The translations under genes and the position numbers were made by a program. A stretch of DNA of 64,000 nt, taken from IMG/VR virus record IMGVR_UViG_3300043466_001759, positions 8,859 through 72,858 of that record; one strand, written 5' to 3'. This DNA comes from a virus. Shown one piece after another: positions 349 to 59,630 of this stretch; position 1 is the first letter of the stretch; each line of letters opens with the position of its first letter. Under the pieces are notes generated by a model. The model saw nothing but the letters and a program-made list of their open reading frames with translations, ran no database searches and had not been told where the DNA came from.

Positions 349-558
349 GGCTTGTCACGGCAATGCCAGTCTAGGCGGGATAAGTCCTGGCGTGACGTGG
401 CAAGGCAAGGCAAGGCAAGGTTTCATGCATCGGCTGAAAAGTCGGTGCGTGGATTTACTGCGGCCCGGCGAGACGGAGCAAGTCGCGATCGGGCATGGCG
501 TAGCATGACGAGGCAAGGTTTCAACTGCTATCAGCGAGGCAGTTTTTAAGTTCGCTGA
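349..558 (+). ncRNA. GGY-NN pentamer guide array, block 1 (unit 1: 349-451; unit 2: 462-558)
   Basis: Unit 1: ggctt gtcac ggcaa tgcca gtcta ggcgg gataa gtcct ggcgt gacgt (ggcaa)4 ggttt, then hairpin 424-451 with GAAA loop. Unit 2: ggccc ggcga gacgg agcaa gtcgc gatcg ggcat ggcgt agcat gacga ggcaa ggttt, then a predicted pseudoknot at 523-558. Confidence 0.85.
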
Positions 559-588: not shown

Positions 589-1146
589 ATGAAGAAGGCA
601 ATTTGCAAATTACAGTCAGTCAGTCCGTATTCTCAATCGAGGTACATCCAAGAGAAAAGAACGCGAGACGAAACGCCAGCAGCGTTCGAAGAGCGATCCT
701 GGAAGCAACGGTGCCATTGGAACGAAAATGGCAATCTTTACATTCCTCCAATGTCGTTCAAAAACTGCTTGAGTGAAGCAGCAAAATACAAATCCATTCA
801 GATCCCAGGAAAGGGAAAGTCGACATACACCAAACACTTCGAGGCTGGGATTCTTGTTGTCGAGCCTCTAGTTCTCGACATTACGAAAGACAGTATCCAA
901 CACGAATGGCTGCACGTCCCCTCTGACGGCAAGCGTGGAGGAACAAAGCGTGTTGAAAAGTGTTTTCCGTTGATTCAGTCTTGGTCTGGCACTGTCGAGT
1001 TCTTGGTGTTGGATGAGACTATCACTGAGGATGTTTTCACAGCACACCTCCAAGACGCAGGGAGCTTTATTGGTATCGGTCGCTTCCGTCCGCGTAACAA
1101 CGGCTTTTACGGTCGTTTTGAGGTAAAGTCGGTGAGTTGGAAATAA
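589..1146 (+). CDS. stand-alone RAMP/Cas7-like RNA-binding protein (putative Vipr-type effector)
   Basis: N-terminal strand KLQSVSP; YIPPMSFKNCLSEAA resembles the Cas7/Csm3 IPGSSxKG motif; C-terminal Gly-rich loop GIGRFRPRNNGFYGRFEV; AAGGA RBS before ATG 589; flanked by arrays. Confidence 0.8.
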   Translation: MKKAICKLQSVSPYSQSRYIQEKRTRDETPAAFEERSWKQRCHWNENGNLYIPPMSFKNCLSEAAKYKSIQIPGKGKSTYTKHFEAGILVVEPLVLDITKDSIQHEWLHVPSDGKRGGTKRVEKCFPLIQSWSGTVEFLVLDETITEDVFTAHLQDAGSFIGIGRFRPRNNGFYGRFEVKSVSWK

Positions 1147-1149
1147 TCC

Positions 1150-1589
1150 GGCAGGGTTAGGCTTTGCGCGTCGCGGCTCGTTGCGGCGTTGTGCGGCAAG
1201 GCAAGACAAGGTTTCATGCATCAGCTGAGAAGTCGGTGCATGGATTGACCTCGGCACGTCTCGTTGGTGCAGGGCAGGGCCCGGCGTGGCGCGGCTAGGC
1301 AAGGCAAGGCAAAGTTTCACATCTGAGGCGAATAGGCTCAGGTGTGAATTGACCGTGGCACGGCGAGGCATGTTATGACTCGGCGCGGCAAGGCAAGGCG
1401 AGGTTTCCTATCTGGGGCGAATAGGCCTAGGTAGGGATTGATTAGGGTTTGGCTGGTCGGATCACGACAGGTCGGGGCTCGGCTAGGTAAAGCAAGGCAA
1501 GGTTTCACAGCTGGAGCGAACAGGTCCAGCTGTGGATTGGACTCGGCATAGTAGGCCGAGGCGGGGCGTGGTAAAGCAAGGCAAGGACT
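1150..1589 (+). ncRNA. GGY-NN pentamer guide array, block 2 (units 3-7: 1150-1242, 1253-1346, 1357-1435, 1441-1534, 1540-1589)
   Basis: Five tandem units with strict 5-nt periodicity; units 3-6 end in ..RGTTT plus a 10-12 bp hairpin (loop GAGA or GCGAAYAGG) followed by RATT; unit 7 ends GGCAAGGAC plus a T run with no hairpin. Confidence 0.9.
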
Positions 1590-1612: not shown

Positions 1613-2089
1613 ATGTTATTTGAAAAATCATCAGACACAAAGATCTTAGAGGACACGCTTAGGCAGGTTGCAGTAGGTGACATGGCCACTTACGAAAACC
1701 TGTCAAAAGCAATTGGAAGGGACGTTCGAACGTTTGCGATCGCTGCACTACGTACAGCCCGACACGGACTCATTAAGGAAGGGTTCGTGTTCGGCGTCGA
1801 GCAGAATGTCGGACTCGTCAGGCTTAACTCTACAGAGATCGTCAAGAGCACAGAAATGGATCGAAAGTCGGTGCATCGAAAGGTTAATCGCACACTCAGC
1901 AAACTAAGCGTTGCGAAGTACGATGAGCTCGATGACGAGAATAAAAGAAAACACGTCACGATGTCAGCGCAGATGGGTGCTCTGGCGATGTTTTCAGCGA
2001 AGACGGCAACCACGAAGATTGAATCTAAAGTCACTGGCGACTCGAAAGTATTGCCAGTCGGCGAAACACTGAAATTGTTTGGTGGGTAA
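1613..2089 (+). CDS. hypothetical basic protein embedded between guide arrays (possible DNA-binding accessory)
   Basis: ATG 1613 after AAAGGGA; the upstream ORF-track extension runs through array unit 7; ATYENLSKAIGRDV looks like a wHTH helix pair. Confidence 0.8.
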   Translation: MLFEKSSDTKILEDTLRQVAVGDMATYENLSKAIGRDVRTFAIAALRTARHGLIKEGFVFGVEQNVGLVRLNSTEIVKSTEMDRKSVHRKVNRTLSKLSVAKYDELDDENKRKHVTMSAQMGALAMFSAKTATTKIESKVTGDSKVLPVGETLKLFGG

Positions 2090-2093
2090 ATAC

Positions 2094-2312
2094 AACACGG
2101 CGGGGTTGAGCCGGGCGAGTTAAAGCCAGGAGCGGTGCAGTAACGCAAGACAAGGTTGCTTGTCGTGAGCGAATAGGTCACGACAAGTATTACGCATGGC
2201 ACGTCTTCACTTGAAACGGCGGGGCGATGCGAGGTGGAGCGTGTCGGAGTAAGTCTCGACAGGTCGCCACAAGGCAAGGTTGCTTACCACGAGCGAACAG
2301 GTCGTGGTAAGC
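2094..2312 (+). ncRNA. GGY-NN pentamer guide array, block 3 (unit 8: 2094-2188; unit 9: 2193-2312)
   Basis: In-register pentamers ending in CAA-GGTT plus 11-bp hairpins gcttgtcgtga-GCGAATAGG-tcacgacaagt and gcttaccacga-GCGAACAGG-tcgtggtaagc. Confidence 0.88.
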
Positions 2313-2341: not shown

Positions 2342-2971
2342 ATGGCTAACGTTACAACAACCGACAAGATTCCAGCGTTCTACACACTGGAGAAGATTTA
2401 CGAGTCGATCGATAAAGTTAACGACAGCTGCGCCGATGGACAGCGAATTGATTTCTGGATTGCTGGGGGATCCGTTAGCGATCTGGCCAGAGGGAGGCGA
2501 TTTAAGGACATCGACGTGTTCAGCCCTAAGCCTGTGGAGCTAGTTGAAAAGCTCTCTAGAGCCTACGGAAAACCGTATTCAGAGATCGTTGGAATGTTTG
2601 CTAACTTCCGATTGGGAAAGCATACGGTTCAAATCATAACTGGATACACACCAGCAAGCGAAGACGAAGTAATCGAGCTATTTGACTTCACAGCTGTTTG
2701 CGGGGCGTACTCACCCGATAGATTCGTATGCCACGAGAGATTCTGGCAAGACAACTGCACGAGGCGATTAGTGATCAATAATTTACCAAAGCCTCTATCG
2801 ACACTAGATCGATTGGCTAAGTACTGTCGCAAAGGCTTCAAGCACTGCCCTGTCGGGTTGTCGCGAGTCATAAAAGCCATCGCAGCTGAAAACATCGACT
2901 GGGACAACCCTAGTCAAAACATAATCAACTTTTACCCAAATGGCCACATACGGTTTTTTGGGATCGATTAA
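2342..2971 (+). CDS. Pol-beta-fold nucleotidyltransferase (CCA-adding/poly(A) polymerase head-like)
   Basis: WIAGGSVSD...KDIDVF (hGG..D, DxD) and LFDFT motifs. Confidence 0.75.
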   Translation: MANVTTTDKIPAFYTLEKIYESIDKVNDSCADGQRIDFWIAGGSVSDLARGRRFKDIDVFSPKPVELVEKLSRAYGKPYSEIVGMFANFRLGKHTVQIITGYTPASEDEVIELFDFTAVCGAYSPDRFVCHERFWQDNCTRRLVINNLPKPLSTLDRLAKYCRKGFKHCPVGLSRVIKAIAAENIDWDNPSQNIINFYPNGHIRFFGID

Positions 2972-3003: not shown

Positions 3004-3495
3004 ATGCTTGTATTAGGAAGAAAAGTCGGAGAGTCAATCACTATCAACGGCGATACCGTGGTAACAGTAAAGAAGCACAGCAGCAAGATCTTTTTGGCGA
3101 TCGAAGCTCCCGATGACGTATCGATCAAACGAACAGAATTACTAACCATAAAAAGAGACGATGAAACAGATATCAAAGCTATCTTACGATTGGATTGTCG
3201 CTCTCAGGAATTCCCTAGCGAAGAATGGTTGCAGTCACTCGGATTTGTTATCAACGAATCTGAGCATGCTCTTTTTGCTACAGCATTACTGGACGACTTC
3301 TCGGGCAATTGCCATCCTGCGCGTGTCGAGCTCAGGCTTATGCTTTTTGCCGATCAGACTGACGAGTGGGTCACTGACGTTGTGTCATACGATGCAAGTG
3401 GGACTGCGTCTTCAGTTGGTCTGGTAAACTCCTGGTGCAAGACCAAGGCTGATGTCATTCGACTTGGCAAAGCCCTCGGTCTTAAAGCTTGGTGA
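3004..3495 (+). CDS. csrA: CsrA-domain protein with long C-terminal extension
   Basis: MLVLGRKVGESITINGD...IEAPDDVSIKRTEL is a typical CsrA signature, followed by about 105 extra residues. Confidence 0.8.
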   Translation: MLVLGRKVGESITINGDTVVTVKKHSSKIFLAIEAPDDVSIKRTELLTIKRDDETDIKAILRLDCRSQEFPSEEWLQSLGFVINESEHALFATALLDDFSGNCHPARVELRLMLFADQTDEWVTDVVSYDASGTASSVGLVNSWCKTKADVIRLGKALGLKAW

Positions 3496-4002: not shown

Positions 4003-4560
4003 CTAGTCTTTAGTTGACTTTCGTTGCTGGGCGAATCTCAACAGATCCTCAGGCCTGACCCTCCACAGGGCTCTCTGGGCTCCGCTAGGCCTGCAATCGA
4101 TCGCTGGAAGCTGTTTACTGTCAATCCATGACTGAACAGTCCTGCGATTCACTCTCATGCGTTCTGCGACCTCCTCTACTTTTAACAGCTCATCGTCCAT
4201 ATACTCGATAACCTCTTCTAACGTGATTCGATTGGGTGCTCTAGGATTGGTGAGCTCCAAATAAGACTCTAGGTCAAAATCATACAACCTGGACTGTGCC
4301 AAGACAGCTAGCTGCCGAGCTTCAGGCCATTTCCTGGCTGACCCAAGTTCCTCGTGGGATCGCCTGCAAACCACCAACAAGGCAAAACGCTTGTCCAGAG
4401 CCTTTTGCCTATGAACACCTCGACATATCTCGTGAACATCCAGGTCACTCGTGCGGTAGCCACTAACTTCACATCGCCCACCAACATCCGATCGCAATGC
4501 TTCTCGGACTGGCCTAGCTTCGTTATAGCGATTCCTCGCTCGATCACTCATACGTTTCAA
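4003..4560 (-). CDS. HNH-like domain fused to excisionase-like HTH
   Basis: RCEVSG..DVHE...VVCRRSH in the N-terminal part; LLKVEEVAERMRVNRRTVQSWI (HTH_17-like) in the C-terminal part. Confidence 0.65.
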   Translation of the reverse strand: MKRMSDRARNRYNEARPVREALRSDVGGRCEVSGYRTSDLDVHEICRGVHRQKALDKRFALLVVCRRSHEELGSARKWPEARQLAVLAQSRLYDFDLESYLELTNPRAPNRITLEEVIEYMDDELLKVEEVAERMRVNRRTVQSWIDSKQLPAIDCRPSGAQRALWRVRPEDLLRFAQQRKSTKD

Positions 4561-4709
4561 GATGAAATTCCTTCTGAGGGCTGTACCCTATAAGTTTTCC
4601 GCACACGCGACAAGTCGTTCTGATCCATCCATGCCGCTTGTGATCCGGTCGATCAACCCACAAAGATCGATCGATGGAACACTGGCTTTGCTGACACACA
4701 GTCAGTTGA

Positions 4710-4967
4710 CTAGAACGGCATTCCGTCGTCTTCTCGGGGAGGGGCAGATCGACTTTTGTTCCCTCCCGACTGGGAGTTTTCCTCCTTAGGCGAGAACGCC
4801 AGACTCATGAACATCGTGCCTTTGTCCGACTTTTTAACCCATGCCGATATCCACATCTCTTCGCCGTTTATCATCCCGCTACCGGTGTAGTCAGGATGCT
4901 TAGGCTCTTGCTTCCTTGCGTTCTTGAAGAGACTTCCGTTGTTGTCTTTTTGTTGATATCCCGACAT
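4710..4967 (-). CDS. small phage ssDNA-binding-like protein
   Basis: GSLFKN..K...HPDYTG...WISAW motif and an acidic tail ending DDGMPF. Confidence 0.65.
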   Translation of the reverse strand: MSGYQQKDNNGSLFKNARKQEPKHPDYTGSGMINGEEMWISAWVKKSDKGTMFMSLAFSPKEENSQSGGNKSRSAPPREDDGMPF

Positions 4968-4968
4968 C

Positions 4969-5373
4969 TTATTCCTCGTCCTCTGTAAATTTTGAATGTG
5001 TCTTGGCATTGTGACATTCAAGGCACAAGACCTTTAACTTGTCCGACTCACAAAACAAAAGTTCTGCAAAAACCTGCAGATCTTGAAAGCTCTTTAATTG
5101 ACCACATGGATGAATATGATCAACCTGAACTTTTTTACCTGGGAACCAGCCAGCACAATCAGCGCATTGGTACTCCCACTTTAACCTAGGGTTGTCGCTC
5201 TGGTTCGGTCGCTTAGCTGCATCCATCGCTAGTCTTGCGATCGGCGGCCACCGTCTCGACATCTGCCTTAAACCACTACGCAAGAACTGCCAGAATCTCG
5301 CTTCCGTCCATTCATTGCCTGCTCTGGTTCTCGGAACCTTTGGGTTCTTGACTGCTTTCTTCTTTTTGGCCAA
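4969..5373 (-). CDS. HNH endonuclease
   Basis: YQCADC...VQVDHIHP...LKVLCLECHNAKT. Confidence 0.8.
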   Translation of the reverse strand: MAKKKKAVKNPKVPRTRAGNEWTEARFWQFLRSGLRQMSRRWPPIARLAMDAAKRPNQSDNPRLKWEYQCADCAGWFPGKKVQVDHIHPCGQLKSFQDLQVFAELLFCESDKLKVLCLECHNAKTHSKFTEDEE

Positions 5374-5382
5374 TATCGCCTC

Positions 5383-6249
5383 CTATAACGTACACAACAA
5401 ATCTAACCACGCATTGCCTGACGTCAGCAACTCTCGTATGTCCTTGTATGGCTTAGGCGGAAAAACCCACGAGGTAGCCAGTTCAGCCGCGACTTTCTTA
5501 GCTCCAAACATACCAGGGAAGCAAAATGCACAACCACTACAATCCTTCTGGCAACTTGAAATAGTTCCTCGCTTCGACACCACCTCGTCTCGTTCTCCTA
5601 TGACAATAATCCGTTTCTTACACTGCGCCGCCTCAATCATCTTCTTGATGAACTCTCCTCCATGAGTATTCGACGATCTTCCTATCGCGCTGAGACAAGC
5701 TGACTCGCATGCTGCAACATCGCTTCCTCCTTCCACGATAAACAATGGTCCTGGATGCGAATTCCAATTGGAAGTGTAGAACACTCCCGTCGACCCTCCT
5801 TGATTGGTTCGCTTGGATCCATCATTGTATCGCCTGACATAACCTATGACTCTGCCTGTCTCATCCCGACTTGGCCAACTGGAAAACTCCGCATTGTTCC
5901 ATTCGTCCCATCCGATCCCAACCCTAAGATCCTCCAGCGAGCTGACGCTAACTGACAGATTGTCAGCAACTTCACATCTCTTCTGGTGGGCTCTCTCATG
6001 GTTAAACATGGCCCGACACTCTCTCGTCCAATCCTCCTTTCGTTCTACTGGTTTAGGTGGCGGCAGTGGCGGCAAAGGGTTGCTCAGGACATGCAACCAA
6101 GCCGATCCGCCATTCCTGTCAGGAGATGGCTTGTCGGACTCGACACGCATGCACCTAACAGCTGTCCCATCTGTAGTCCTGGTGCAGTAGTCAGGCTTTC
6201 CGCATACTGCACACGGCTCATGTCTTGTGACCCTAGCCCACTCAGCCAT
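5383..6249 (-). CDS. primase-like protein (Zn finger + TOPRIM)
   Basis: CAVCGKPDYC; FIVEGGSD TOPRIM motif; KDIRE near the C-terminus. Confidence 0.75.
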   Translation of the reverse strand: MAEWARVTRHEPCAVCGKPDYCTRTTDGTAVRCMRVESDKPSPDRNGGSAWLHVLSNPLPPLPPPKPVERKEDWTRECRAMFNHERAHQKRCEVADNLSVSVSSLEDLRVGIGWDEWNNAEFSSWPSRDETGRVIGYVRRYNDGSKRTNQGGSTGVFYTSNWNSHPGPLFIVEGGSDVAACESACLSAIGRSSNTHGGEFIKKMIEAAQCKKRIIVIGERDEVVSKRGTISSCQKDCSGCAFCFPGMFGAKKVAAELATSWVFPPKPYKDIRELLTSGNAWLDLLCTL

Positions 6250-6567
6250 TTAGTCCTCTGCTCCGCATGCGGCATCAGCCAGACACAAGGATTCGAATCG
6301 AGAATCCCACTCTCGTTCAATAGCCACCCTGGCCATCTCGTCTAGTTCCCCCCAGATCCAGTGATCGCCTCGATAACGCTCCTCGGTTGAGGTGTCCCAT
6401 CGCGTGACGCTGACATCGAGCAACTCCGCTTCAGCTGGGCAACCTGGATAACCTGAGCCATCTGAATAATATCGAACCATCGGCTCTTCCGGCGTAGCGC
6501 AGTAGTCGACAGCAACTTCTAAGCTACTCCTGCCAATATCCACTGTAACGTAAACAGTCCCTCGCAT
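6250..6567 (-). CDS. hypothetical phage protein
   Basis: AGGAGA RBS; DGSGYPGCPAE motif. Confidence 0.65.
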   Translation of the reverse strand: MRGTVYVTVDIGRSSLEVAVDYCATPEEPMVRYYSDGSGYPGCPAEAELLDVSVTRWDTSTEERYRGDHWIWGELDEMARVAIEREWDSRFESLCLADAACGAED

Positions 6568-6603
6568 TGCAAATCTCCTGCATAACAACGAAACGAACAG
6601 TTA

Positions 6604-7053
6604 TCACGCGCCAGATTTGGGAACCCACCCAACAGGCGCTCTATCTGCATACCTTTTTCTTGCCAACCCTACAGCCTGAACACTGCGTCCGATCTTCTCG
6701 GAAATCTGTGTGTCAGTCAGCTCTCGATCAAATGCCATTTCGATCTCGTAGTCCGACCACCTTCTGTGATCGTTGATCGCATACTGAGTCTTCTGGTAAC
6801 GACGCTTCTTTTGCAGCTGTCGCTTCTTCAGGGTCTCTGGCTTCTTCCTGCTCTCCTTTATGCGTTTCTTTCTTAGCTCGGCTCGAACTGGATCCTTCAG
6901 CTCTAGCCCCCTTGACCTGCGATTAATCAGTCTGACCCTCTCCGGATTAGCCTTTCTCCACATTCTCTGATACTCCGCATGTTTCCTGCGTTTCTCTTCG
7001 GTGTCATAACGAGCCGGAGCCGTGGACGATGTGTTATCTGAAATCATAGTCAC
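6604..7053 (-). CDS. basic protein with C-terminal HTH-like segment
   Basis: RRWSDYE...TDTQISEKIGRSVQAV. Confidence 0.6.
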   Translation of the reverse strand: MTMISDNTSSTAPARYDTEEKRRKHAEYQRMWRKANPERVRLINRRSRGLELKDPVRAELRKKRIKESRKKPETLKKRQLQKKRRYQKTQYAINDHRRWSDYEIEMAFDRELTDTQISEKIGRSVQAVGLARKRYADRAPVGWVPKSGA

Positions 7054-7055
7054 TC

Positions 7056-8630
7056 CTATTCTTGATACGGATTATGTTCTCGCCCCCAATTGCCTACCGT
7101 AAACCCATACAGATCCCTGACGCATCTAGTGCAATCACCGTCTCCGTATGGAACTGTTCTAAACCACCTGCCAGCCACGAAAAACCTAGCTGGCGTCACA
7201 AAGCTAGTCCCTTGCTCTTCTGCCTCTCTGAAAGCAAGCTTCCACGCCTGCCCCCATGTCCCACCTTTTGAAGCAGCACGGTACAACGACCGAAGCATTA
7301 TCTGCTCGTTCGTTTTCTTCTTTTTCTCCTTCTTTTCCTTTTTGTCTTTTTTAACTTCCTTGAGTTCACCTCCAGAGAACTCGAGGCCTTCCGACTTGGT
7401 TCCTTTCTTTATTGGTTCGTATCCGCAGCTTCGACACTTCCCTCCACGATAGATCGCTCCGCATGACGGGCACTCTACAGTGGCGCGTGGCTCGTGAGTC
7501 TTTGATGGCCTCTCTCCCCATTCCAGCGTCCATGCCACATCGTCTTCAAAGAATCCATGCTTACGTATGTTGTTGGCATGATCTAAAACGATGCAATCTT
7601 TAACATCAGGATGCACTCGTGAACCTCGACCAACCATTTGTCTGTAACGAACAACGCTACCGATCGCAGTACACAGCTGGACGCAACCAACGCGAGGTAT
7701 GTCAGTCCCTCGCTCGATGACACCCACATTGCAAATGTATTGAATCTCGCCATTGTCTAGTCTGTCAAACAAGTCTTGCCGTTCTTCGTCACCGGTCTCG
7801 CCGTCAACATAGTGAGCATCGATTCCATTGTCTCTGAGCATCTGCATCGCCTCCTGCGCGTGCGAACGTCTCGGAAAAAAACCGATGGTCGCTCTACCTT
7901 CGGCCAATCTCTTCCAATCTCGAATCAGGTCGCCAGTGAGCCCTTCCATAGCTGCTGCAACGCTGTCCTCTGTGTAATCATCACCGCTCTTCTTAAGTAG
8001 CTTCAGATTGCCCACAGTGCCCTGAAAATACCTGAATGACGATAGATACCCATTGTCGATCAACCATGATGGCGTAGGACCGTTGACGATCTTCTTGAAC
8101 ACCTTGTTCAATTCTTTGTGTTGGGGTGTCGCGGACAGCCCTAGAACGAATGGCTCACTAAGACCCAGCTCGTTCCTCTTGGCATTGTGCGCAGCTAAGA
8201 ACGTCCGAAACTTAGAGACTTGCGAATGGATCTCATCGAACACTAAGAAGTCGTACGTAAAATCAGTCCTGTAGTCTCTTTTGTCTACATACCAGCTGTT
8301 GATAGTATCGATCGAAGCTACCTGCAGCGGCGAGTCTGGAGATGTTTCGTATCCAGACATGATCACTCCATGGAACAGCTTGGGATACTCGTTGAACGAA
8401 TCACTAGCGTTTTGTACAAGTCCCCTGCGATGGACCATAAACGCAGCCTTACCAGATTCCGTTGGCTTCTTTGGACGATTTAGATATGACCCCAGAATGA
8501 ATTTGGAGGTGACTGTCTTACCAGCTCCCGGTGGCATGCACGCAATCAAATTCCTATGTGTCACTATCTCTCGCCTCAGCTCATCGACCAAGGACTCTTG
8601 ATAGGGCCTGAGTACTGGTAGCTCGATCAT
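7056..8630 (-). CDS. SF2 DExH helicase (RadD/UvsW-like) with Zn ribbon
   Basis: LRPYQ, PPGAGKT, DEIH, LSATP, QMVGRGSR, CPSC/CRSC. Confidence 0.92.
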   Translation of the reverse strand: MIELPVLRPYQESLVDELRREIVTHRNLIACMPPGAGKTVTSKFILGSYLNRPKKPTESGKAAFMVHRRGLVQNASDSFNEYPKLFHGVIMSGYETSPDSPLQVASIDTINSWYVDKRDYRTDFTYDFLVFDEIHSQVSKFRTFLAAHNAKRNELGLSEPFVLGLSATPQHKELNKVFKKIVNGPTPSWLIDNGYLSSFRYFQGTVGNLKLLKKSGDDYTEDSVAAAMEGLTGDLIRDWKRLAEGRATIGFFPRRSHAQEAMQMLRDNGIDAHYVDGETGDEERQDLFDRLDNGEIQYICNVGVIERGTDIPRVGCVQLCTAIGSVVRYRQMVGRGSRVHPDVKDCIVLDHANNIRKHGFFEDDVAWTLEWGERPSKTHEPRATVECPSCGAIYRGGKCRSCGYEPIKKGTKSEGLEFSGGELKEVKKDKKEKKEKKKKTNEQIMLRSLYRAASKGGTWGQAWKLAFREAEEQGTSFVTPARFFVAGRWFRTVPYGDGDCTRCVRDLYGFTVGNWGREHNPYQE

Positions 8631-8631
8631 A

Positions 8632-9393
8632 TCAGCTCCACAGCTTGACAGACTGAGCAACCTTTACCAGACGATCTCTCTCCCTAGCGTTTGGCTTGTG
8701 ATAGTGATAATCGTCGATCGCTCGGACTAGTTTTGCCCTGTACTGATCAGCAAGACTCTTGACCTTCTTGGCCTCGTCTTCTGGAGTGGCCTTAGGCTTT
8801 GGCATCTCCTCAGACAACTTCTTGCCGGACTTCTCAGCCTTCTTTGCGACGGCTCTCTGCTCAGCCTTGGGAAGCTTAGCCAGCTCCTTGATCTTTGTAG
8901 TAGGGAGCGATTCAGCAGCTTCCTTAACTTGATCATCAAGCTTATTGATTAACTCAGTCTTCTCAACGTCTCGATAGACTTGCCTTTCCGAAACTTTAGC
9001 TTCCTTGGCTACGATCGCCACAGCATCAGACTTGCTGTGGCCAATACTCTCTTGGTAGGCCACCATCTCTGCGCGTAACCGAGACTGAACAGAAGCAGTC
9101 AAGTTACGTTGGTAGATCGCATCGCGTTTCATGCGATACTCAACCTCTTCGATCGTCTCTGCGGTCTCATAGACCTGCTTGACGTCAAACGGAAGCTTGT
9201 TCTTCTTGCAAAGCTTGTAACGATGATGACCGTCAACAAGGACATCGCCCCACAACCAAAGAGGATTGTACGCACCTCCTTCATCAACCAAGGACTGCTC
9301 GAGCCCTGCTAACTGCTCCTCGTCTAGCGGAGGGATCAAATCTCTCAGCTTATCGACTACTCGTATCTTACCGTTGTATGGTTTCTTGCTCAT
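8632..9393 (-). CDS. ParB/Srx-like N-terminal domain protein with HTH
   Basis: LIPPL..E...LE.SL..EG..NPL...LVDGHHRY; VAKEAKVSERQVYRD. Confidence 0.75.
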   Translation of the reverse strand: MSKKPYNGKIRVVDKLRDLIPPLDEEQLAGLEQSLVDEGGAYNPLWLWGDVLVDGHHRYKLCKKNKLPFDVKQVYETAETIEEVEYRMKRDAIYQRNLTASVQSRLRAEMVAYQESIGHSKSDAVAIVAKEAKVSERQVYRDVEKTELINKLDDQVKEAAESLPTTKIKELAKLPKAEQRAVAKKAEKSGKKLSEEMPKPKATPEDEAKKVKSLADQYRAKLVRAIDDYHYHKPNARERDRLVKVAQSVKLWS

Positions 9394-9422
9394 GCTATTG
9401 CTTTCGCTTGTAAGAATTAACT

Positions 9423-9662
9423 CTACTGCTTGGGCCAATACTTGTGTATCAGCTCGATAATGTTTTCGACCGCGTGGTTTGTGTTGTCGAGCCTCATTAC
9501 ACTCGCCGTGGCTATGCGTCTAAGGCCTTCATCTAAAGGCTTTCTAGCTGCTGCGGTCGCATCAAAATTAGCAGCTACCTCCAGGATCTTAACTCTATTG
9601 TTTATCTCATTAATGAGAGCCCACTTGGCAGAGTTGAGCTGCCTTGCTTTGTCATCACTCAT
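9423..9662 (-). CDS. hypothetical protein
   Basis: Overlaps the end of the upstream gene in the operon. Confidence 0.5.
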   Translation of the reverse strand: MSDDKARQLNSAKWALINEINNRVKILEVAANFDATAAARKPLDEGLRRIATASVMRLDNTNHAVENIIELIHKYWPKQ

Positions 9663-11007
9663 CTTCGGTCTCAAGTTCCTCTTCGGCTCCAACCACACGA
9701 CCGTCCTCGATAATCACTGCACATCGTTCCGCATCGGCATCAGTGCGGGTAACTAGCTCGATGATTAACTGGAAGTCGTTCTCCTTGACTACAGACTCCA
9801 GTGCATCCAGCGTGTCGTTATCTAGATCGCTGCCGTGTTGACACACAAGCAATCTCAACTTGGGATTGAGCGCCATACCAACCTTAACGCTCGCCATGAT
9901 TCGCTGACTTGTTGACGCCTGCTCGAATGGTAGGCCATTCATCAGCAACCCATCCTCATTGAGTTCCATACCCTCCATCGGCCATTCTGCGTTAGCAACT
10001 TCCTCGGCTCGCATGTCTTGAATAGCCTTAAGCTTGTCAGTCAGTTTTTGCCAATCCCCTCGAGACTTCTTAAGCTCGGCTTCGACCTCGTCGTGCTTCT
10101 TGTTGGCACGAACTTTTTCATTGACCGAGTCAGCATCTGATATCTTCTGCTTCACTGACGTTATATCACTAGCAACGTCAGGAGCCTCAGAAAACTCCTT
10201 CTTGGCTTTCTCTAAGCTCTCTTCCGACTTAGCATAGAGCAGCTTGCTGTAATCCAGGCGAGACTGAAGGTCAGCTATGGATTTCATGAGCTTCCGTTCT
10301 TCCTCGTTGATATCCTCCTGCTCGCTTTTGATTTCCTCGATCTTCCGCTCCAAGTCCTGGCGTTGCTTCTCTTTGTCTTTGAGACCGTCTAACTCGGCCA
10401 TCAAGTCAGCAACCCTAACTTCTTCAGCTGGAGCACCCTCGTGTCTTTTCAAACCTTCAAGCTGGGATGCAAGCTTCTTTCCATCTCGCCCCAGGTCGGT
10501 GCGTTCCGCAAACACCCGCTTGTATTCGTCATCGAACTTACCAAGATCCAGTCCAAGCATCTCCTGGACCAGCGTAGCCTTCTCCTTTGGCTTCATTCGC
10601 TCGAATGCCAAGGGATCGAATGCTCGCAGGGTGAACAGCCTCTGAAGCAGCTTACGGGGCTCTGGGGCCTCCTCGCCAGTCGAATCCAGAACACGAAACT
10701 CTTCAACAACTGCCCCTGATGGCTTCTGACGCAACGACAGTTCGACCGTGATAGACTTGGATTCCATCAGCTCCTCGTCGCCAGTGAGCTCGATCGTTAC
10801 CTTGCCTTTCTTCTGACCCTTTCGAAGAGCGATATCTGGATAGTCCGAGCCAGACTTGCCGGCCAGTGCCATAATCAGCGCCGTCAATGCTGACGTCTTA
10901 CCCTGGCCGTTCTTTCCTCCGACCAGGAACAAATGTCGACCAGCCAAGTCGAATCGAACATCTTTAACACCCAACACGTTGTGGGCTTCGTACTTGATAA
11001 CCTGCAT
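9655..11007 (-). CDS. Rad50/SbcC-like coiled-coil P-loop ATPase
   Basis: GGKNGQGKTS Walker A, long coiled coil, degenerate signature QASTSQ; AGGAGA RBS. Confidence 0.85.
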   Translation of the reverse strand: MQVIKYEAHNVLGVKDVRFDLAGRHLFLVGGKNGQGKTSALTALIMALAGKSGSDYPDIALRKGQKKGKVTIELTGDEELMESKSITVELSLRQKPSGAVVEEFRVLDSTGEEAPEPRKLLQRLFTLRAFDPLAFERMKPKEKATLVQEMLGLDLGKFDDEYKRVFAERTDLGRDGKKLASQLEGLKRHEGAPAEEVRVADLMAELDGLKDKEKQRQDLERKIEEIKSEQEDINEEERKLMKSIADLQSRLDYSKLLYAKSEESLEKAKKEFSEAPDVASDITSVKQKISDADSVNEKVRANKKHDEVEAELKKSRGDWQKLTDKLKAIQDMRAEEVANAEWPMEGMELNEDGLLMNGLPFEQASTSQRIMASVKVGMALNPKLRLLVCQHGSDLDNDTLDALESVVKENDFQLIIELVTRTDADAERCAVIIEDGRVVGAEEELETEDE

Positions 11008-16641: not shown

Positions 16642-19600
16642 TTAATTGGTAAATACTTTTCTTAACTGACGGAGCCTGAGACTCAGCCCTTCCTTGTAGA
16701 CTACGACGCCTTTCTTCGTCTCCTTAGCCGATCCATAGTTATCTTCCCAGTGCTCTATCAACAGCCTCCTGGCTTCAGTCATGCTGATGCCAGATTTCTT
16801 GAGAGTTTTCATGTATTCATCTCGAGAAGTGACAGCGTCTTTGTAAGCCTGATCGCTCTTGTAGTTTTTGCGGGATGGATTAGCAGATGCCGCATAGACT
16901 AGACTCTGTTTCTTTTTCTGCTGAGCGTCCCTCGCTTGCTTCTTTTGAGATCCGCTTAGGCTATCGCTGTACGCAAGATCCTTGTCATCCCATTTCATGC
17001 CTCTCAAGTCTTTATCAAATAGCTCCTTCTTTTCCTCGTCGCTTGCTCCTGAATACTCAGTGCGAGGACCATAGGTAGAAACCGACACTCCAAAGAACGC
17101 CTCGAGAGACGCTAACGTACCGCTAACGACTCCAAGCTCTTTCTCGGCTGCAGCTATTTCCTTCCATGTTAAAGGTGTGAGACGAGATCCGATTATGTGC
17201 TTAGGCACTGCCAACGGATCTCCCTCTTTTGCTATGTTCCTGCCTACGGCATCTTTTCCAGAGACCCACTCTAATATCGATGCTGGACCTGTACCTAGCT
17301 TGTACCTAGCGAAATTAATAAGGAAGTCCGCTCCGGTCTTTCCACCGTATTGAACATCTTCACCGTAAATCGATTTGATCTCGCCACTGCTGGTCTTTAT
17401 TGTTCCAGTTAGTAACCTCGAAGCTAAAACAACAGCTGGCATTAAACCACCATCATCTTTGAATCGCGTCTCTCCAACCTTCATAACCCAGGCATCACTA
17501 GATCTTGGATCCCATTCAATGGTGGGCTCCTTCTCTTCGTCGTCCCCAGCGAGTAGTGAGTAGGCAAAGTAACCCATGGCCATTTTCGTAGCGTGCCCCA
17601 TGAGAGTTTGAATGTACAGCTTTGCCAGCGACACTCTCATTCCACGGTCGGCATTCCATTGACCTATCCATGAGGGGGTAGCCAACTGGAGCGGCAAAAT
17701 GAAGTCGGCTTGAATTCTGGACCACGTCCATCGTCTTGCCAAGAAAAAGAAATCTAGCCACGGACTTCCACCTCTAAGGCCAGTCCCTCGACCGCTAAAG
17801 ATGTTTGTTATTCTGCCAGCCTCTTTGATGTCGCTATCAGTCCACTCCATATTTGTGCCGAAAAACTCTCGAGCTGCCAGTGTGTCTCGCTTCTGAATAT
17901 CGTACAGATCAGCCTTCATGATATTCGCGAAGGTCCGGTTCCCTCGCTCGAAAGCTCCGTACGCACCAACCCAAGCGCGAAACGGAAGCAACCACGGAGT
18001 CTTGGTGTTCTCGAGCCATCGGATAACGGCCGACTGGTACATCTCTTCCAGCTGAGCTCTTGGCCCATCTTTCTTAGTGAACTCAACCTCTGCCTGCAGA
18101 TACTCCTTCGCATTTGGACGGCTCTCCAGGCTTTCCACCGAAGCCAGAGCCAGCCGCTGACTCCACACTGCCGGTATCGCCTCGACTGCCGCCATGAACG
18201 CTCTGACTGGATGCGATCGCGAATAGAAAAAGCCCTGCCTCAGAAAGAACGACAACTCCATGCCAAGCATCAGAGTCTTGGGTATTAAAGAGGTTGCTTC
18301 CAGCAATCCGTATTGCATCCACTGACCAGCATTCCAGGTTGCTCGTTTCGCCTTTTCGATCTCATACATCGCCTCATACTTTATCTTTTCGATCTCGAGG
18401 TTCTTGTCGAGGATGTCCTCTTCTGTGATCGTCCGCTTATTGCGTGGAACTGGAAGTATCCCTGACTTTGCTTCGTCACGTCGCTTCTCCCAGAACGCCA
18501 GACGCCTCTCCTGGCCTTTTCGGTATCGCTCCCAGTACTTCGCTTCTTCACGAGCTTGGTAGACAGGGCTCGCCTTCCTGGCTTCATCACGTACCTTCCT
18601 GAGATCAGCCAGCTGGGCCCGTAATGACTCAAGAACGCTAGAAGTAGGAACCTTGCCCTTTACCGCAGGAGCCCACGTTCCATCAGTCAGTGACTTCGTG
18701 TCAGCTTTTATATCATCGATTTGAGATTGCAGCATTCGCTCTGCCATGGCCAGCCGCTGCTCCTCAGTCATCGGCTTTCGACCACCCTGTGCAGGTATTG
18801 CTCCACCGTCATCATCGTAGCGACCCTGCTCAGCCTCAGCTGCTGCTTGCCTTGCCGCTCTTAGACGATCCTGCCACATCTTGAGCTGCGACTGGACCTC
18901 AGCAGCAACTAGGCTAGGCTTCTTGGTTGAGTCGACCTCCTTGCCATCCTTTACTTGCTGAAGCTTTTCTTTTAGTTTCTCGATAGCCTTAAGAGCTCGT
19001 TGTGTCTGCTGCTCAGCTGAAAGCATCCTCTGCTTCTTGGACCTCGGGAATATTTTTTCGTACTCAGTCTTCAAGTCGTCGCGTTGCTTCCTCTTCGCCT
19101 CGAGCTGGCTCCTTATTGAAGCTAACTCTGCGTCTGGCTTCAATGGAGTGCGATCGTTAACCGACCTTGCCAGCACAGTACGACTCTCGATAGCTTCTTC
19201 CAGTGCCTCAATGTCTTTGCTTAACATCTCGAGCCTGTTCTTGCCAGCAGTCTTGGCTGTGCTCAGCGCAGACTTGAGTTGGCCCTCACGAGACTCCGTT
19301 GAAACCGGAAGCTCTTTTTTGAGCTTATTGAACTCAGCAATCAGATCTCGCTCGATGCTATCTGGAGTAGGCTGTTCTCGTCCTGTTGATTTCGGTAGCA
19401 AGTTCTGGTCTCGAAGTCGACGAGCAACCTCTTCTGGACTTACACCATTCTTAAGCCACTCTTCACTTTGAGCGATGGCCTTAATGGTGTCCTCGATCTT
19501 TAAGGACTGACGAGTCTTTCCTCGAATAGCTCGAGTCTTTACTGCAATCTCCTCTTTGTTCAGTGGACGCCATGAACCGTAGTCAGACATGGCCTGCATA

Positions 19601-22600
19601 GTGTCGTATTCTGAAATACCAGGAACTTCGATCGACAACTGCGCATGAACAACATCGACAACTTCCCTCCAAGTTTCATTGGTCGCTCCATAACCGGCCT
19701 CAATCGCTAGGGTCATCAACTCTTTCGCCCTCGCTCCAATAGCAGACGGCTCAGGATCATCCCCGATCGGAGACTCTACCTTCTTCTTGCTATTGCTCTC
19801 CGCCCAGGCGTCTTTGATTACTGACATCTGTTCAAGAGTCACGTTTGGCATGTTGGCTTTAACTTGCGACTCCAACTCTAGGACAGAGCTAACTCCCATC
19901 TCTCGCAGAGCGTTAACAATACTGTCAGCTGCTGACTTAATGTCAGTGCCTTGCCGCGACGGAGAGTAACGAATGTCAGGATTCGTCTTATCAAAATCGC
20001 CTGTGTTAGAAGTGGCAGACTTCACCTGGGATGATTCAACAACAAACCAGGACTCTCCCGATCCATCGTTTTCTTCATATACCTTCACTCCATCGTAGCC
20101 ACGCTCTTTCATTCTTTCGACAACCTTAGGATTGTCCAACGCATGCCAGTCTATCATGCCGTCGATGAATATCTCGTTGATCCAGTCCCCATCGCTGTCC
20201 ACCTCGGTGTTCGAAACACCACCTCCAGTGTCTATCCACCGCTTGCCACCTTCTTCGTAGATCATTGGCTCTAAGATGTACTCAGCATCTTCAAAAGCCT
20301 TTGCAGAAGCAGCCTTAACTTCTTCACTCGATCGACTACTGATACCGATCACCTTTGGATCCATCAGCCTGTTTTGAACAGAAAGATAGACTGGCAAGAC
20401 ATTCTTTCCGTACTGCCTAGCATCGTCTTCGCTAGGGCTAAAGAAAAACCCGCTAGTCTCTACATCAAACGACGAGAGCATTACTGATCGTTGCGATGTC
20501 CTGCCTGACTCAAACACAGAGAACTTTTCGTTGGTTCCGTGATACACAACTAGAGGGTTACCATCCTCATCGACAACCTTGCTGTCACCGAACCACTTCT
20601 TAAAGGCAGCTGTGTCGATCTGTGATCCGCCAGCACCTCCCTGCGCGTCCTCCCAAGCTTTAATAGCGTACTCGAGAGGATCCAGTATGACCTTTGACGC
20701 ATCAAGTAAGTTCGTGACCTCAGACCCGATGTCAGGATTGCTAGAGACATACTTCGGAAGATACTTAACAAAGGAGTTGGCAAGAGCCTTGTAATCCGAT
20801 GGATCGCTAAATCGGTCCTCATCGAACTCGACTCCTGACTCACTGGCTATTTGCTCGAGCATCATGCGAGTGCCTCGAGACCTGTCTCTGAATAGTGCTT
20901 GGACTCCTTCGGCCCAATTCCTTTCTTGCAAGTCAGATTGGACAGTCCACTTGCTAAACATCCTCATGAGCTTACTGTCTGCCTTGAACGGATTCTCGTC
21001 TCCGAACACAGTCCCTAGAACAGCTATGTCTTCATCACTCAGTTTAGACTCAGGAATGGCTTTCATTATCAGCGGCATATACGCTCGCAACCACTCGTCT
21101 CGAGACACAGTAGATGGGTCTGGAAGCGTGTCGGTGCCAAATCCAAAACCGTTCACATTGGTGATCGCACTGCGACTAACAGCTGCGCGACCAGATGATC
21201 CGCCGCCCCATGCGTTTTGAAATGCTGCAAAACCATCCGCAACCTTTTTCATAAGCGTAGCTCGCTTAGTACCGATCTTCTCTCGAGGAGGATCTGTCTT
21301 TGGTACTGACGCCGCTTCAGCTTTCTTTCTTGCGATTGCTTCCTTGGCAAGTTTTTCCGCAAGGGCAGCTGTTTCCGCTTCTAGCTTATCTATACGCTCA
21401 GCCATCTCGGCGTACTTAGCGATCTGCTCTGGGCTCGGGTCAGCTTCAACGTGGCTTGTGTGCTGTCTGGTTAACCCTTCCACTGAGAAGTCAGACGCCA
21501 ACTCGGCCTGAGCGGCATGCCCTGCGTAGCCCCATTCCGAATGCCCTCTCTGAACAGTCCTGTTGAGATCTAGCCATTCCTTCCTGTCGCTTCCAGAGAT
21601 GTCTCCTTCATTCTTGAGCTCTCTAATACGAGCGTTAAGTATCGCATCTTCCATGTCCGTCAACGGTCTAGGCTTAGCGTTCATCTCTGAGATGATCTCG
21701 TACGGACGGCCTGGATTAGCTGCGAGTTCTGCAATCGCTTTCTTTTGCCTGTCCTTGACCTTTCTTGGACCAAACCATTCTCTAGGAGAGTCACCTACAG
21801 ATTTTCTCTGTCCTTCAGTCCTGGCGTACTTTGTTCCAGTAGTTTCCGGTAGTGAACTCTGCCCAGGCTTCGCTAACCCTCGTTCCTCCATAGCTTTCAT
21901 AAGCTTGGCGAACATCTCGTCTTGTCGGCTTGGAGAATAACGGATATCTGGATCAAACTTGTCGAACGTGCCTCGATTGCCAGTCGCTGACTTGATCTGC
22001 GAAGAATCAAAAGCAACAACTTCCGCGAATGGCAAGTCTGACTGATTGACTATCACCCCATCGTAACCAGCTTCTTTAAGCCTCTTGGTTATCTCGATCG
22101 ACTTCTCTGGGTCCAGGTGTGACGTCGGATCACCATCGTACACATCGTTAAATACCTTAGCTACTTTTGCGTCAACATAGTCCAGCTTGCCGCCAGACAT
22201 AGACAGAGCGTCTGCAGTGTTGTCTCGATAGGTGTCATTGATGATCGCAGGGTTCTTAATGTCAACATAGACCTCCAGAATGCGAGATCCATCACCCCTG
22301 CCCGCGTACCTACCAGCACCTTCGCTGTCTGTTGTAAAGTAATACCCCTTTCCGTAGTAACCTCCGTCAGTAGACGTTTTCGCCTTTCCTTCGAAAACGT
22401 TGAAGTCCCTCTTAGTTCCGTGATACAAAGAAAGAGGCTGTCCGTTCCAAACAATCTTAGAGGAGTTCTCAGGATCATTCTCCCAATCTCCGAACCATTT
22501 CTTAAAAGCTGGAGAGTCGACCTGACGACTCGGAGAATAGCGAATCGACTCTCCTTTTGTTCCTTTGGGAGAGATCCGAACACCGTTCTTCTCAAGCTCG

Positions 22601-25600
22601 GCGCGGAGTTGAGGCGTTACCGTGTTCTCTGGTATAGATAGCCTGCTGGGATTGACAATATCTGCAATCTTTTTAGCAACTTCAGCATCAGGCACAATGC
22701 GTTTGATTCGCAGATATCTTGAAAGAACCACTTCCCTGCCTCCAGGGAGCTTAGATGCAACAACGCCAGCTGTCCATTTGTTTGACCCGACCTTCTTACT
22801 AGACCCTTCTGCCTGATACCCACTGGTCATCTCACTTGCCGGAACTTCGACTTCAACAATGACCATCTTCGGTCGCTTGACCCCATCGTTGTACCAGGAA
22901 GCCGTAAACTGATCGTTAAGAGGTATCGGAGAAGCATGGAAGTACGGAGCATATGCTGCCCAGGTTGTTCCCTTTGGTTTCTTCAATGGGAATTTGCCAG
23001 CATACTTGCCAGTCTTAGGGACCAAGTCAGGCCTCTCCTCAGCAACCATCCACTTGCCTACAGGCTCAGGCTTCCTTAAAGACAGCTTCTTACCGTCGTT
23101 GATCTTCGAGGACATTGGCGGGTATAGATTCCCGTCAATCATTGTCATAGCGCGATACAACGTCACCGTCTCGCCTTTATCTAGCTCCTTAGCTAATTCA
23201 GGCCGTGCGATTGCGTACCGAAGACCGGAGTTAAGATCTCGACTGTCCAGTGCTGTCGCGTTTTCAATCGCGGCCGATCGCTGCGACCTGACTGCTTCGT
23301 CGATGTCGTCGAAAGCTTTACCTTCGCCGCTATTGTGACGATAGATGTCGGTTCGCTGAGGATCGTAGGCCATGAAGACCACGTCTGGCTCGCCGTTGTT
23401 GAAGTCTGAGTACTCCTCCTTGCTCCAGCCACTCGGTGCAAACTCATCGCTCCACTTGGCACGAGAGATCACTCGGAACCCATTGGCACTGTAAAGAACA
23501 GGAAGGAACGTATCGAAGGCGTCCAGAGTGTTACCGCCCTCTTCCACAGCAAGACGCATCATCGAATAACTAACGCCACGATGTGCGTTATTGGCCGTGT
23601 TGAAAACTGACACAATGTCAACCACACCGGCCTCTCCAGAGTCCTTCAAGGCGAAACCTGCCTTGCCATCTTCCGTCAAGAATAGCCGCATATCACGGTA
23701 GTCTTGCTCCGGATAAACATAGACAGATGCACCGAGCTTACCCTGGCTTTCACGCGCCGCATTTATAGCCGCCGTAAACTGTGACGCAGACTTCTCTGAC
23801 TTCTGTAGCTCTACGAAACTGGGAGCGGCAACCCCAACATCAGCCCACTCGGCAGCATCAGCCTCGTAGGTCGCAACTACGCCATATCCGCCCAGCGTTC
23901 GGCTTTCTTCTGATCTACTCCAAGCTCTTCCATTAGATCCAACACGGCTCCGGATGGTGGCTGTTGCTTCCCTGCCGCTTCTTTTTGCAACTGCAGCTCT
24001 TTCTCTAGTTTTTCTGGACCTGTCTTCTGACCCGTCTTTTTCTGTGGTTCCATCAGTACTCTCCCTATCTGTTGTTTCTGAATAATCTGCCGCACGACCT
24101 TCCGTCCAGGTCCACTCTGGCATCAAGCCAGTCTTCTGATCAGCAAAGGTCGTGTCCTCTACTTTTGCAGTACGATTCTTGTCTCCGTGCGGACCATAGT
24201 TCAACCACGAGTTTTGACCTCGGGTCTCGCTCGTGATCGCACCAACAGCATCACCCGTAAACAGCCTTACGTGAGCCTGCCAAGCGTTCTCTTCGCCTCG
24301 AGCTCTAAACCCAGCCCCTTCTAGACTATGGCCAAATGCGTCGTGAACGGCTCGGAACAAGTCGTTCGCCGTAACTGGTTTCATTTGCCCGTCCAAACCA
24401 CCGGAAGGCCATTTGATACCAGTATCTTCTAGCAACGGGTTGTCGTTGACATCAAGATCGCTGGTTCCAAATCCGTCCGATGTCGGGAATACGCCCATCT
24501 GCTTGTTTTGTCGCAGATCTCGCAAAGCGTTATACGGGCTTGACGCGTACTCAGCATTACTTGGCACATTCAAGTCCATAAACCAGAACTTGTACCCAGC
24601 GTCTTCCAGAGCCTTGTACTGAGCAGTGGTCTGCCTAATCAGCTCTTTGTACGCGGCCTTAACCTTTGGATCCTGGGGAGCATGAGCCATTTGCTCGTAA
24701 GCATCGGCTATCCTCTTAGCTCTCTCAGGATCTACCTGAACGTACTCTGCTTGTCGCTTTAGGTCGATTCCGTTTTCTTTTGCGTATCGCTCGGCGACTG
24801 CAACGACCTCGGGGTCCGGCCCGTTAATGCCCGGGACCGATGGCGAGCCTGCAAGAGGCGAATTCTTCCTAAGGTCTTTTCGTCCTCTTCCGTCTCCGGC
24901 CGATTCGGGTCGTTGTCGCCCCACTCCTGCTCTGGTGCCATCTGCACCGGATCCGGCATATTCTCCGCCATCCAACTCTCTACCGCTGCCAGCGTCCTCT
25001 CCTGATTGAACAGTCGATTGTGCTCGTCCTGTTGCTTCTGGAGAGACTCGCTGTCCGGAAGAAATCGACTCTCGTCGACCATCTCGCTTCGACGCTCTGT
25101 GTTCTTGGCTGACCTTTTTTGCTGCTTGTTCATAATCTAGTTTTTCAATCTCCTTAGATAAACCGAGTTTTCCCCACAACTCTTTCTCATAGTACCACAT
25201 CAAAGCCTGGAAGTCAGCTTTAGTAATGTCCTTTCCGATAACTTCCTTTACTTGCTTAATCGCCAGCTCAGCTACCTCCCTCTGAACCTCCCTGTCTTTT
25301 CCTGACTTTGCTATTTCGTACAACCCATAGGCGTTCACGACTACGTTTTTCGCGGCTTTGAATTCAGTAGTATTAACTTCAGTTCGCCTCGCTATGGCGT
25401 CTCGAGCCATTCCAGCTATCGACTCGCTGCTGACTTTCCCGGCTACCTTCGAGTTTCCTATCTTTTCTGACAGTTGACCATAAAACTTCTTTTCGTTGGC
25501 ATTTAGTTTAGACGGATCAACTGGAGCGAATTGCTGTATCGAGCCGTTTTCAATAGATCCAAGTTCATCGGCTTTTTTGATTGCCGACACGTAAGAACTT

Positions 25601-58459: not shown

Positions 58460-58531
58460 TTGCGGGTAATGGAATCGAACCATTTACCTCTGGATTATGA
58501 GCCCAGCGAATCGCCATTCTTCTGACCCGCA
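58460..58531 (-). tRNA. tRNA-Met (CAT), initiator-like
   Basis: TGCGGGT/ACCCGCA acceptor, CTGGG-CTCATAA-TCCAG anticodon arm, AATGG-TTCGATT-CCATT T-arm; no encoded CCA. Confidence 0.85.
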
Positions 58532-59518: not shown

Positions 59519-59630
59519 AGGCTAGAGTTGGAGTCGAACCAACACGATCGCTACCATCAGGTCATGACTCCCTACTCTTGCGACACACTATCACCTTGCG
59601 GGTGACGCTCTACCTTTGAGCTACCTAGCC
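59519..59630 (-). tRNA. tRNA-like RNA with 5-nt anticodon loop and ~47-nt variable insertion
   Basis: GGCTAGG/TCTAGCC acceptor; GCTC-AAAGGTA-GAGC D-arm; TCACC-CGCAA-GGTGA; GTTGG-TTCGACT-CCAAC. Confidence 0.7.

Follow-up and report, generated by a model that had tools for sequence, protein, structure and literature searches.

Organization of the locus

The window analysed here is a stretch of 64,000 nucleotides of phage DNA, positions 8,859 to 72,858 of the IMG/VR virus record IMGVR_UViG_3300043466_001759. Nine tracts of pentanucleotide repeats are found at 349-2277, all on the plus strand, where they occupy the gaps between plus-strand genes. The tract at 1441-1500 is referred to as unit 6 and the other tracts are numbered likewise. 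The features of the region are listed below.

349-418, plus strand: repeat tract of putative vrRNA 1, 14 pentamers; tail hairpin at 419-455 with a GAAA loop (minimum free energy -20.8 kcal/mol, z -5.87)
457-516, plus strand: repeat tract of putative vrRNA 2, 12 pentamers; followed by a short hairpin and a T-run directly 5' of vipr
589-1146, plus strand: vipr, encoding a 185-aa minimal RAMP (Cas7-like) protein, assigned by homology and predicted fold
1150-1209, plus strand: repeat tract of putative vrRNA 3, 12 pentamers; tail hairpin at 1210-1251
1253-1312, plus strand: repeat tract of putative vrRNA 4, 12 pentamers; tail hairpin at 1313-1354
1357-1401, plus strand: repeat tract of putative vrRNA 5, 9 pentamers; tail hairpin at 1402-1443
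1441-1500, plus strand: repeat tract of putative vrRNA 6 (unit 6), 12 pentamers, placed by its pentamer register
1501-1542, plus strand: tail of putative vrRNA 6, consisting of GGUUUC, a 12-bp stem with a C-G pair closing a pentaloop, and then GGAUUGGAC
1545-1584, plus strand: seventh tract in genome order (unit 9), 8 pentamers, without a hairpin tail
1613-2089, plus strand: candidate vap (vipr-accessory gene), 158 aa, a conserved neighbour of vipr in relatives
2099-2153, plus strand: repeat tract of putative vrRNA 7, 11 pentamers; tail hairpin at 2154-2195
2218-2277, plus strand: repeat tract of putative vrRNA 8, 12 pentamers; tail hairpin at 2278-2319

The nine tracts comprise 102 pentamers, with 8 to 14 in each. 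Position 1 of the pentamer is G in 82 of the 102 and position 3 is C or T in 101, and positions 4 and 5 are near-random (0.29 and 0.11 bits, respectively). Position 2 is G in 72 pentamers, T in 17, A in 11 and C in 2. Since G is present at this position in only 72 of 102 cases, the scaffold is a related consensus and not a strict GGY.

In eight of the tracts the repeats lead into GGTTKC and then a hairpin. The 72,858-bp genome has eight conserved repeat-tail junction motifs, all of them located at 414-2273 of the window. Unit 9 has no tail; a T-run comes after it, and then the ribosome-binding site for the next gene. Seven of the eight tails fold far better than shuffled sequences (z -3.7 to -7.0), that of vrRNA 6 with a minimum free energy of -22.9 kcal/mol and a z of -5.52; the tail of vrRNA 2 folds no better than its shuffles (z -0.99). 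In a covariation test that took in five tails (4-8), the common hairpin was paired in 65 of 65 cells, 9 of its 13 pairs were changed on both sides, and none of 500 shuffles scored as well. A search of Rfam at gathering thresholds returned three tRNAs only, with no match at 349-2320. GenBank phages gave no DNA match to 340-2340, and the literature on pentanucleotide repeats yielded nothing relevant to the tracts.

Contigs from four lake-water runs carry no differing letters wherever the locus is covered. Unit 6 is covered in part by contigs of runs X5 (to 1479) and X7 (to 1484) and completely by a contig of run X8 (1394-1910), with no differing letters in any of the three. Contigs of runs X4, X5 and X8 either stop within the array region (at 398-420 and 1270-1403) or link 1403 to 398 through seven other letters. 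These breaks suggest that variants with rearranged guide units co-occur, which contigs cannot prove.

The Vipr protein and the VIPR systems

The protein encoded at 589-1146 belongs to no Pfam family, matches phrog_4652 at 6.3e-16 and has one distant protein match among GenBank phages (Pseudomonas phage LESphi2, 23% identity). A profile of 44 homologues matched one sequence in the PDB, 36pp_D, "SUSP1 Vipr protein", with an E value of 4.5e-33, and the single protein reached 1e-05 against SUSP1 Vipr. Its G-loop, GIGRFRPR, aligns with GVGDWRPR of SUSP1. The AlphaFold (AF2) model of the protein has a pLDDT of 94.7 and a pTM of 0.87. When this model was used in a Foldseek search, 103 matches were obtained at E <= 0.001, the top ones being type VII and type III Cas7/Csm3 chains (best match 8z4j_J, E 6.7e-08). 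The model predicts an RRM core, a glycine-rich loop and a thumb like those of Cas7/Csm3 from Class 1 CRISPR systems (types III and VII). Unlike a Class 1 CRISPR system, however, the locus contains no CRISPR array and no other cas genes. The guides differ as well: in contrast to the 5+1 arrangement of Class 1 CRISPR, a VIPR guide is non-contiguous, with two of every five RNA bases pairing and one of every three DNA bases skipped.

The RNA-guided silencing of DNA by VIPR was described only very recently, and the system has been proposed to be older than CRISPR. According to the available text of the preprint (10.64898/2026.04.26.720920), VIPR loci combine vipr, the gene for the minimal RAMP Vipr, with the accessory gene vap and with vrRNAs that flank vipr, each made up of 9-16 YNNGG repeats and a structured 3' tail. 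The same text states that the target is set by the NN dinucleotides under a "1 nt skip" rule and that most inferred targets are coding sequences, on either strand, with the skipped base at the wobble position. Binding represses transcription, promoter-proximal targets repress well, and perturbation of GGY abolishes silencing by the SUSP1 system. The available text of the companion preprint (10.64898/2026.04.26.720927) reports that SUSP1 Vipr binds with one protomer per repeat, that all twelve units engage the target and that the NN bases are presented for pairing in the solved structures. In that account G1 is contacted by H17 and D177, G2 is contacted by R138 and W178, and the Y3 pocket excludes purines. 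The 2026 VIPR preprints (10.64898/2026.04.26.720920, 10.64898/2026.04.26.720927, 10.64898/2026.10.15.759431) list seven types and 664 loci, and the clade studied here may already be among them.

The match to the published VIPR description identifies the window as carrying a VIPR locus, and 1441-1542 very probably encodes one guide RNA of this phage-borne system. The locus resembles the VIPR systems of Escherichia phage SUSP1 and a Pseudomonas fulva prophage (type II) in having a small RAMP homologous to SUSP1 Vipr, 5-nt units of three scaffold and two variable letters (8-14 units per RNA here), structured 3' tails, vrRNAs upstream and an array downstream of vipr, and a conserved small gene that may be the counterpart of vap. 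It is also phage-borne and without a self-target. The locus differs from that of SUSP1 in its scaffold, which is purine-N-pyrimidine with position 2 free here, and GGC or GAC in relatives, instead of a strict GGY. The tail here is a plain 12-13-bp hairpin (only the hairpin was examined) whereas that of SUSP1 is reported to include a pseudoknot, and the last two or three units in this clade nearly always have AA as their NN.

A further difference from SUSP1 is found in the protein, in which alignment places F, R and F at the positions of R138, D177 and W178. Because these residues are replaced, the reading of the scaffold in this clade may differ from that in SUSP1. Distant members of the Vipr family retain R and D-W/F at the aligned R138 and D177-W178 positions. 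Judged from the alignment, the altered G1/G2 pocket would fit the relaxed second letter of the scaffold. The pyrimidine at position 3 in all pentamers but one fits the pyrimidine-only Y pocket of Vipr. The combination of a relaxed second letter with replaced G1/G2-reading residues should be useful for understanding how Vipr reads its scaffold.

Arrays in related phages

Relatives of the Vipr protein are encoded in 141 of 156 candidate IMG/VR stretches, of which 80 loci were kept; the phage thus belongs to a large uncultured clade. Arrays were surveyed with a strict detector in 81 sources, namely the first 9 kb of the window and the 80 IMG/VR loci found through the protein. The detector recorded 128 arrays, spread over 55 of the 81 sources, and 126 of the arrays are on the strand of the vipr relative. 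The scaffold in these arrays is GGC (1084 pentamers) or GAC (539 pentamers), and the NN are variable. The arrays of the relatives are 8 to 38 units long and much cleaner than the tracts in the window; they begin a few bases past a stop codon and often end just 5' of the next ribosome-binding site. In the clade, the last unit has AA as its NN in 87 of 124 arrays, and the two preceding units often have AA too. If all units pair as in SUSP1, targets of this clade would need to end in AAxAAxAA; otherwise the AA units may serve as a constant handle.

The association between gene and array was also found in the converse direction. The pattern (GGCNN)8GGC, used alone, matches at least 120 IMG/VR stretches, and a family member lies within 3 kb of the array in 81 of the 120 matches listed, 80 of them on the strand of the array. 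This count comes from an HMM search on array-free ORFs, a filter by which one or more true positives (L086 among them) were lost; when the window protein alone was the query instead of the HMM, a member was found in 31 of the 120 matches listed. (GGCNN)n arrays are common in uncultured phages, and single contigs can have up to seven matches (L083-L202).

A homologue of the ORF at 1613-2089 adjoins vipr on the same strand in 52 of the 80 related loci, and on this basis the ORF is a candidate vap. Pfam provides weak hints for its product, such as an HU-like domain (E 0.066).

Register and decoded series of unit 6

The register of 1441-1500 was set from the conserved GG of GGTTTC in 5-nt steps. 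In this register the tract consists of 12 pentamers: ATTAG GGTTT GGCTG GTCGG ATCAC GACAG GTCGG GGCTC GGCTA GGTAA AGCAA GGCAA. The layout is purine-N-pyrimidine-NN; position 1 holds a purine, and position 3 a pyrimidine, in 12 of 12 pentamers. None of 20,000 shuffles, each scored by the best of its five registers, equals this register, nor does any of 61,440 other 60-nt windows within the 64,000-nt window. The scaffold is degenerate: GGY is present in 7 of the 12 units and the others have ATT, GTC, ATC, GAC and AGC.

The NN series at positions 4-5 is AG TT TG GG AC AG GG TC TA, exactly as given in a preliminary description of this DNA, and is followed by AA AA AA, so that there are nine variable dinucleotides. 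The preliminary description had extended the tract to 1505; the stretch 1441-1500 is the repeat tract but the last five bases, 1501-1505, are already part of the 3' tail. It had read each NN as the first two letters of a codon with the third letter skipped. This rule is the published 1-nt-skip code of VIPR, at least in the available text of the preprint (10.64898/2026.04.26.720920), and by analogy would apply in this clade. The resulting translation, [RS][FL][CW]GT[RS]GSY, is right by the standard code, although TGN and TAN also include stop codons. The preceding tail ends in the conserved GGATTGA, which ATTAG overlaps, so that the AG of the first unit, from which the first Arg was proposed, may not be a guide position. 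A run of seven codon prefixes (TT TG GG AC AG GG TC) is compatible with FWGTRGS. The motif (K/R)FWGTRGS is what we take to be the N-terminal motif of MBL-fold hydrolases.

Searches for the target of unit 6

The series had been proposed to target the start of a host gene for an MBL-fold hydrolase. Exact AGnTTnTGnGGnACnAGnGGnTCnTA stretches were found twice in genome_contigs (185,579 species genomes), not at all in viral_contigs (IMG/VR) and seven times in metagenome_contigs (JGI), two of the seven being identical at the site. No stretch from these three collections falls within an MBL-fold gene or is in register in a real gene; the real genes at these sites use other frames. On these collections the proposed target therefore fails the test that the preliminary description had named as refuting it. 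The in-register frames have stops inside or are open for at most 96 aa. They read RLCGTSGS between stops, SF*GTRGS*, SFWGTSGSY*, SLCGTRGS*, RF*GTRGS* and RSLWGTSGSY*, and in short frames IRLWGTRGSY (23-aa frame) and SLCGTRGSY (56-aa frame). The pattern without the doubtful first unit matched four viral stretches, none of them MBL. The FWGT[RS]GS codon pattern was found in 46 viral stretches, none at the start of an MBL gene. Thirty of the 46 are one repeated sequence in a 41-44-aa frame. Of the long in-frame ORFs among the 46, those at three loci encode a tail fibre bearing an S74 chaperone domain, and the others encode a fusion of UDG, exonuclease and DNA polymerase A and a phrog_358 protein. 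The phage's own genome has no Lactamase_B_2 (PF12706) gene. Exact-pattern scans of this kind miss mismatched targets.

The peptide reading of unit 6 is not unique, as the opposite-strand wobble frame reads Y[DE]PLVP[HQ][KN]L. Codon-position dinucleotide frequencies from 33 long ORFs of this phage give the frame of the preliminary description a posterior of 0.04-0.06 among six frames, compared with 0.09-0.15 for the opposite-strand wobble frame. The evidence is weak and goes no further than showing that the peptide frame is not favoured. Several candidates for the opposite-strand peptide were rejected. The peptide is in frame in the gene for a major head protein (L211, 19/24) and in that for a 994-aa membrane protein (L204, the same as L208); the two proteins are unrelated, and the matches in L210 and L213 lie outside a real gene. 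The opposite-strand matches were judged to be due to chance.

The exact 10-NN patterns of units 1 and 8 have no stretches in viral_contigs (IMG/VR). On 1.85 Mb of related VIPR loci no guide scored above its shuffled null; for unit 6 the best score was 17/24 and the null averaged 17.6. The phage's own genome holds no self-target for unit 6. The best own-genome score is below 80% for 8 of the 9 guides, with 15/24 for unit 6 and 14/18 (78%) for unit 5. The VIPR systems in the available text of the preprint likewise have no self-target at an NN identity of at least 80% (10.64898/2026.04.26.720920). When 160 guides sampled from the 350 of the relatives were compared with the 1.85 Mb of loci, no excess was found at a skip of 0, 1 or 2. 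The skip-1 test gave 2 versus 1 matches at an identity of at least 0.9, and a skip of 3 finds only the arrays themselves.

One further candidate was a phrog_358 gene on a 21-kb phage fragment (G001), where unit 6 matches 20/24 in frame, above the 80% threshold; the match had been preselected by a 16-letter pattern. It was rejected on account of this preselection and because the other eight guides do not converge on the record. The best of these on the record are unit 3 with 18/24, a score that 23 of 500 shuffles attain, and unit 5 with 15/18 (27 of 500), and the rest are at the null. The part concerned, L247 (G001:C1, about 4476-10168), is a jumbo-phage fragment with sites at locus positions 2196, 717 and 2901. 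Unit 6 (20/24) and the tail-less tract (13/16) match in frame within one 883-aa phrog_358 gene, and unit 3 (18/24) matches just upstream of the start of that gene. This co-location is not significant once the number of tests is allowed for.

Proposed mechanism and alternative explanations

Homology with the SUSP1 and P. fulva systems suggests that the vrRNA would be expressed and would form a ribonucleoprotein, Vipr polymerising along it with one protomer for each 5-nt unit. Every protomer would grip the purine-N-pyrimidine scaffold and present the NN dinucleotide, and the NN series would pair with one strand of double-stranded DNA, every third target base being flipped out. The bound filament would obstruct transcription, and the hairpin tail may cap the 3' end of the vrRNA. 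The nine variable dinucleotides of unit 6 would specify a gapped target of about 26 nt. The natural VIPR targets named in the available texts of two of the preprints are competing phages, satellites, prophages and other VIPR loci (10.64898/2026.04.26.720920, 10.64898/2026.10.15.759431). By analogy, unit 6 is most probably directed at a competitor within the same lake-water host, whether phage, prophage or satellite. The exact scans of the three collections returned no natural target for it. The roadblock envisaged in the preliminary description agrees with the published mode of action, silencing by the bound complex, as given in the available text (10.64898/2026.04.26.720920). The idea that the phage programmes the knock-down of a host gene goes further, since such targets are absent from the natural targets in the available texts (10.64898/2026.04.26.720920, 10.64898/2026.10.15.759431).

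A guide against the opening codons (R-F-W-G-T-R-G-S) of an MBL-fold hydrolase gene in the host, which would be knocked down by a roadblock at its 5' end, draws on a published decoding rule, on the good repression of promoter-proximal targets and on the seven consecutive codon prefixes compatible with FWGTRGS. In addition, satellite-borne vrRNAs steer VIPR to decoy sites within the host's genome according to the available text (10.64898/2026.10.15.759431), so that host DNA can be a target. However, none of the 2, 0 and 7 exact stretches and none of the 46 viral FWGT[RS]GS stretches points to an MBL gene, the phage lacks a Lactamase_B_2 gene of its own, the first R comes from a unit that overlaps the preceding tail, and composition favours the other wobble frame over this one. 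Moreover, by genetic-code arithmetic, a typical gene of this kind (with CGN Arg codons and with Ile/Val-Pro after the Ser) would match at most about 14-15 of the 24 guide positions, which is under the 80% threshold in the available text of the preprint (10.64898/2026.04.26.720920). This target is thus very unlikely, and it is equally hard to believe that unit 6 acts on the start of a chromosomal MBL-fold gene of the host that is missing from the scanned collections or mismatched in them. If it were true, a lytic lake-water phage would be using VIPR to switch off a host gene instead of a rival mobile element, and a host gene shown to be a target would widen the known biology of VIPR. Unit 6 may instead be an eroded, non-functional guide, a decaying copy kept only by linkage, as GGY is present in only 7 of its 12 scaffolds and the GGC/GAC arrays of relatives are much cleaner. 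Such erosion is improbable: the purine at position 1 and the pyrimidine at position 3 are kept in all 12 pentamers, and the degeneracy is mainly at position 2, whose SUSP1 contacts (R138, W178) are replaced and where relatives use A. The tail hairpin is also intact and covaries with its paralogues, and the contigs of three lake-water runs are identical over part or all of the tract.

TRAP binds RNA with (G/U)AG-NN repeats, about 11 of them and one per protein subunit, and the spacers carry no information. The tracts resemble TRAP RNA in their 5-nt period and in having three conserved and two variable letters, in 9-14 repeats. They also fill the spaces between co-oriented genes, often stopping a few bases short of a ribosome-binding site, and a CsrA-like gene is nearby. 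On these grounds the tracts could be binding sites for an RNA-binding protein that forms rings or filaments and controls the genes downstream, with the NN as meaningless spacers. In contrast to TRAP, however, the protein linked to the tracts is a RAMP with homology to Vipr (E 4.5e-33), and the two variable letters serve as a guide: solved structures present the NN for pairing, and the NN fix target specificity in the experimentally studied VIPR systems. The TRAP-like or CsrA-sponge idea, which is highly improbable, was dropped in view of the Vipr match and of the CsrA-like gene being present in none of the 80 related loci. With this window the known VIPR systems gain a complete lake-water phage of 72.9 kb that carries nine guides, and its clade numbers 141 confirmed relatives in IMG/VR. 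The analysis also has corrective value: the decoding rule was right, and already published, but a peptide derived from nine dinucleotides is not the identification of a target.

Neighbouring features

Several other features of the phage were recorded. Directly 3' of the last vrRNA is a nucleotidyltransferase-like ORF (2342-2971, plus strand; phrog_4400 at 1.4e-11, and a weak match to the PolyA_pol head domain at E 0.027), which is present in none of the 80 related loci. The CsrA-like gene (3004-3495, plus strand), also absent from all 80 related VIPR loci, encodes a 163-aa protein with a CsrA domain in the first 48 residues (Pfam 8.6e-12), followed by an extension of about 110 aa. A 4,862-aa ORF lies on the minus strand at 16642-31230, and its parts match only PHROGs of unknown function (best phrog_21376, 2.7e-44); in view of these matches, the idea that the hairpins are N4-like promoters was abandoned. 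The three tRNA matches in Rfam are on the minus strand at 58460-58531, 59519-59630 and 61031-61098. The middle one may carry an insertion or intron, as it spans 112 nt for a 71-position model.
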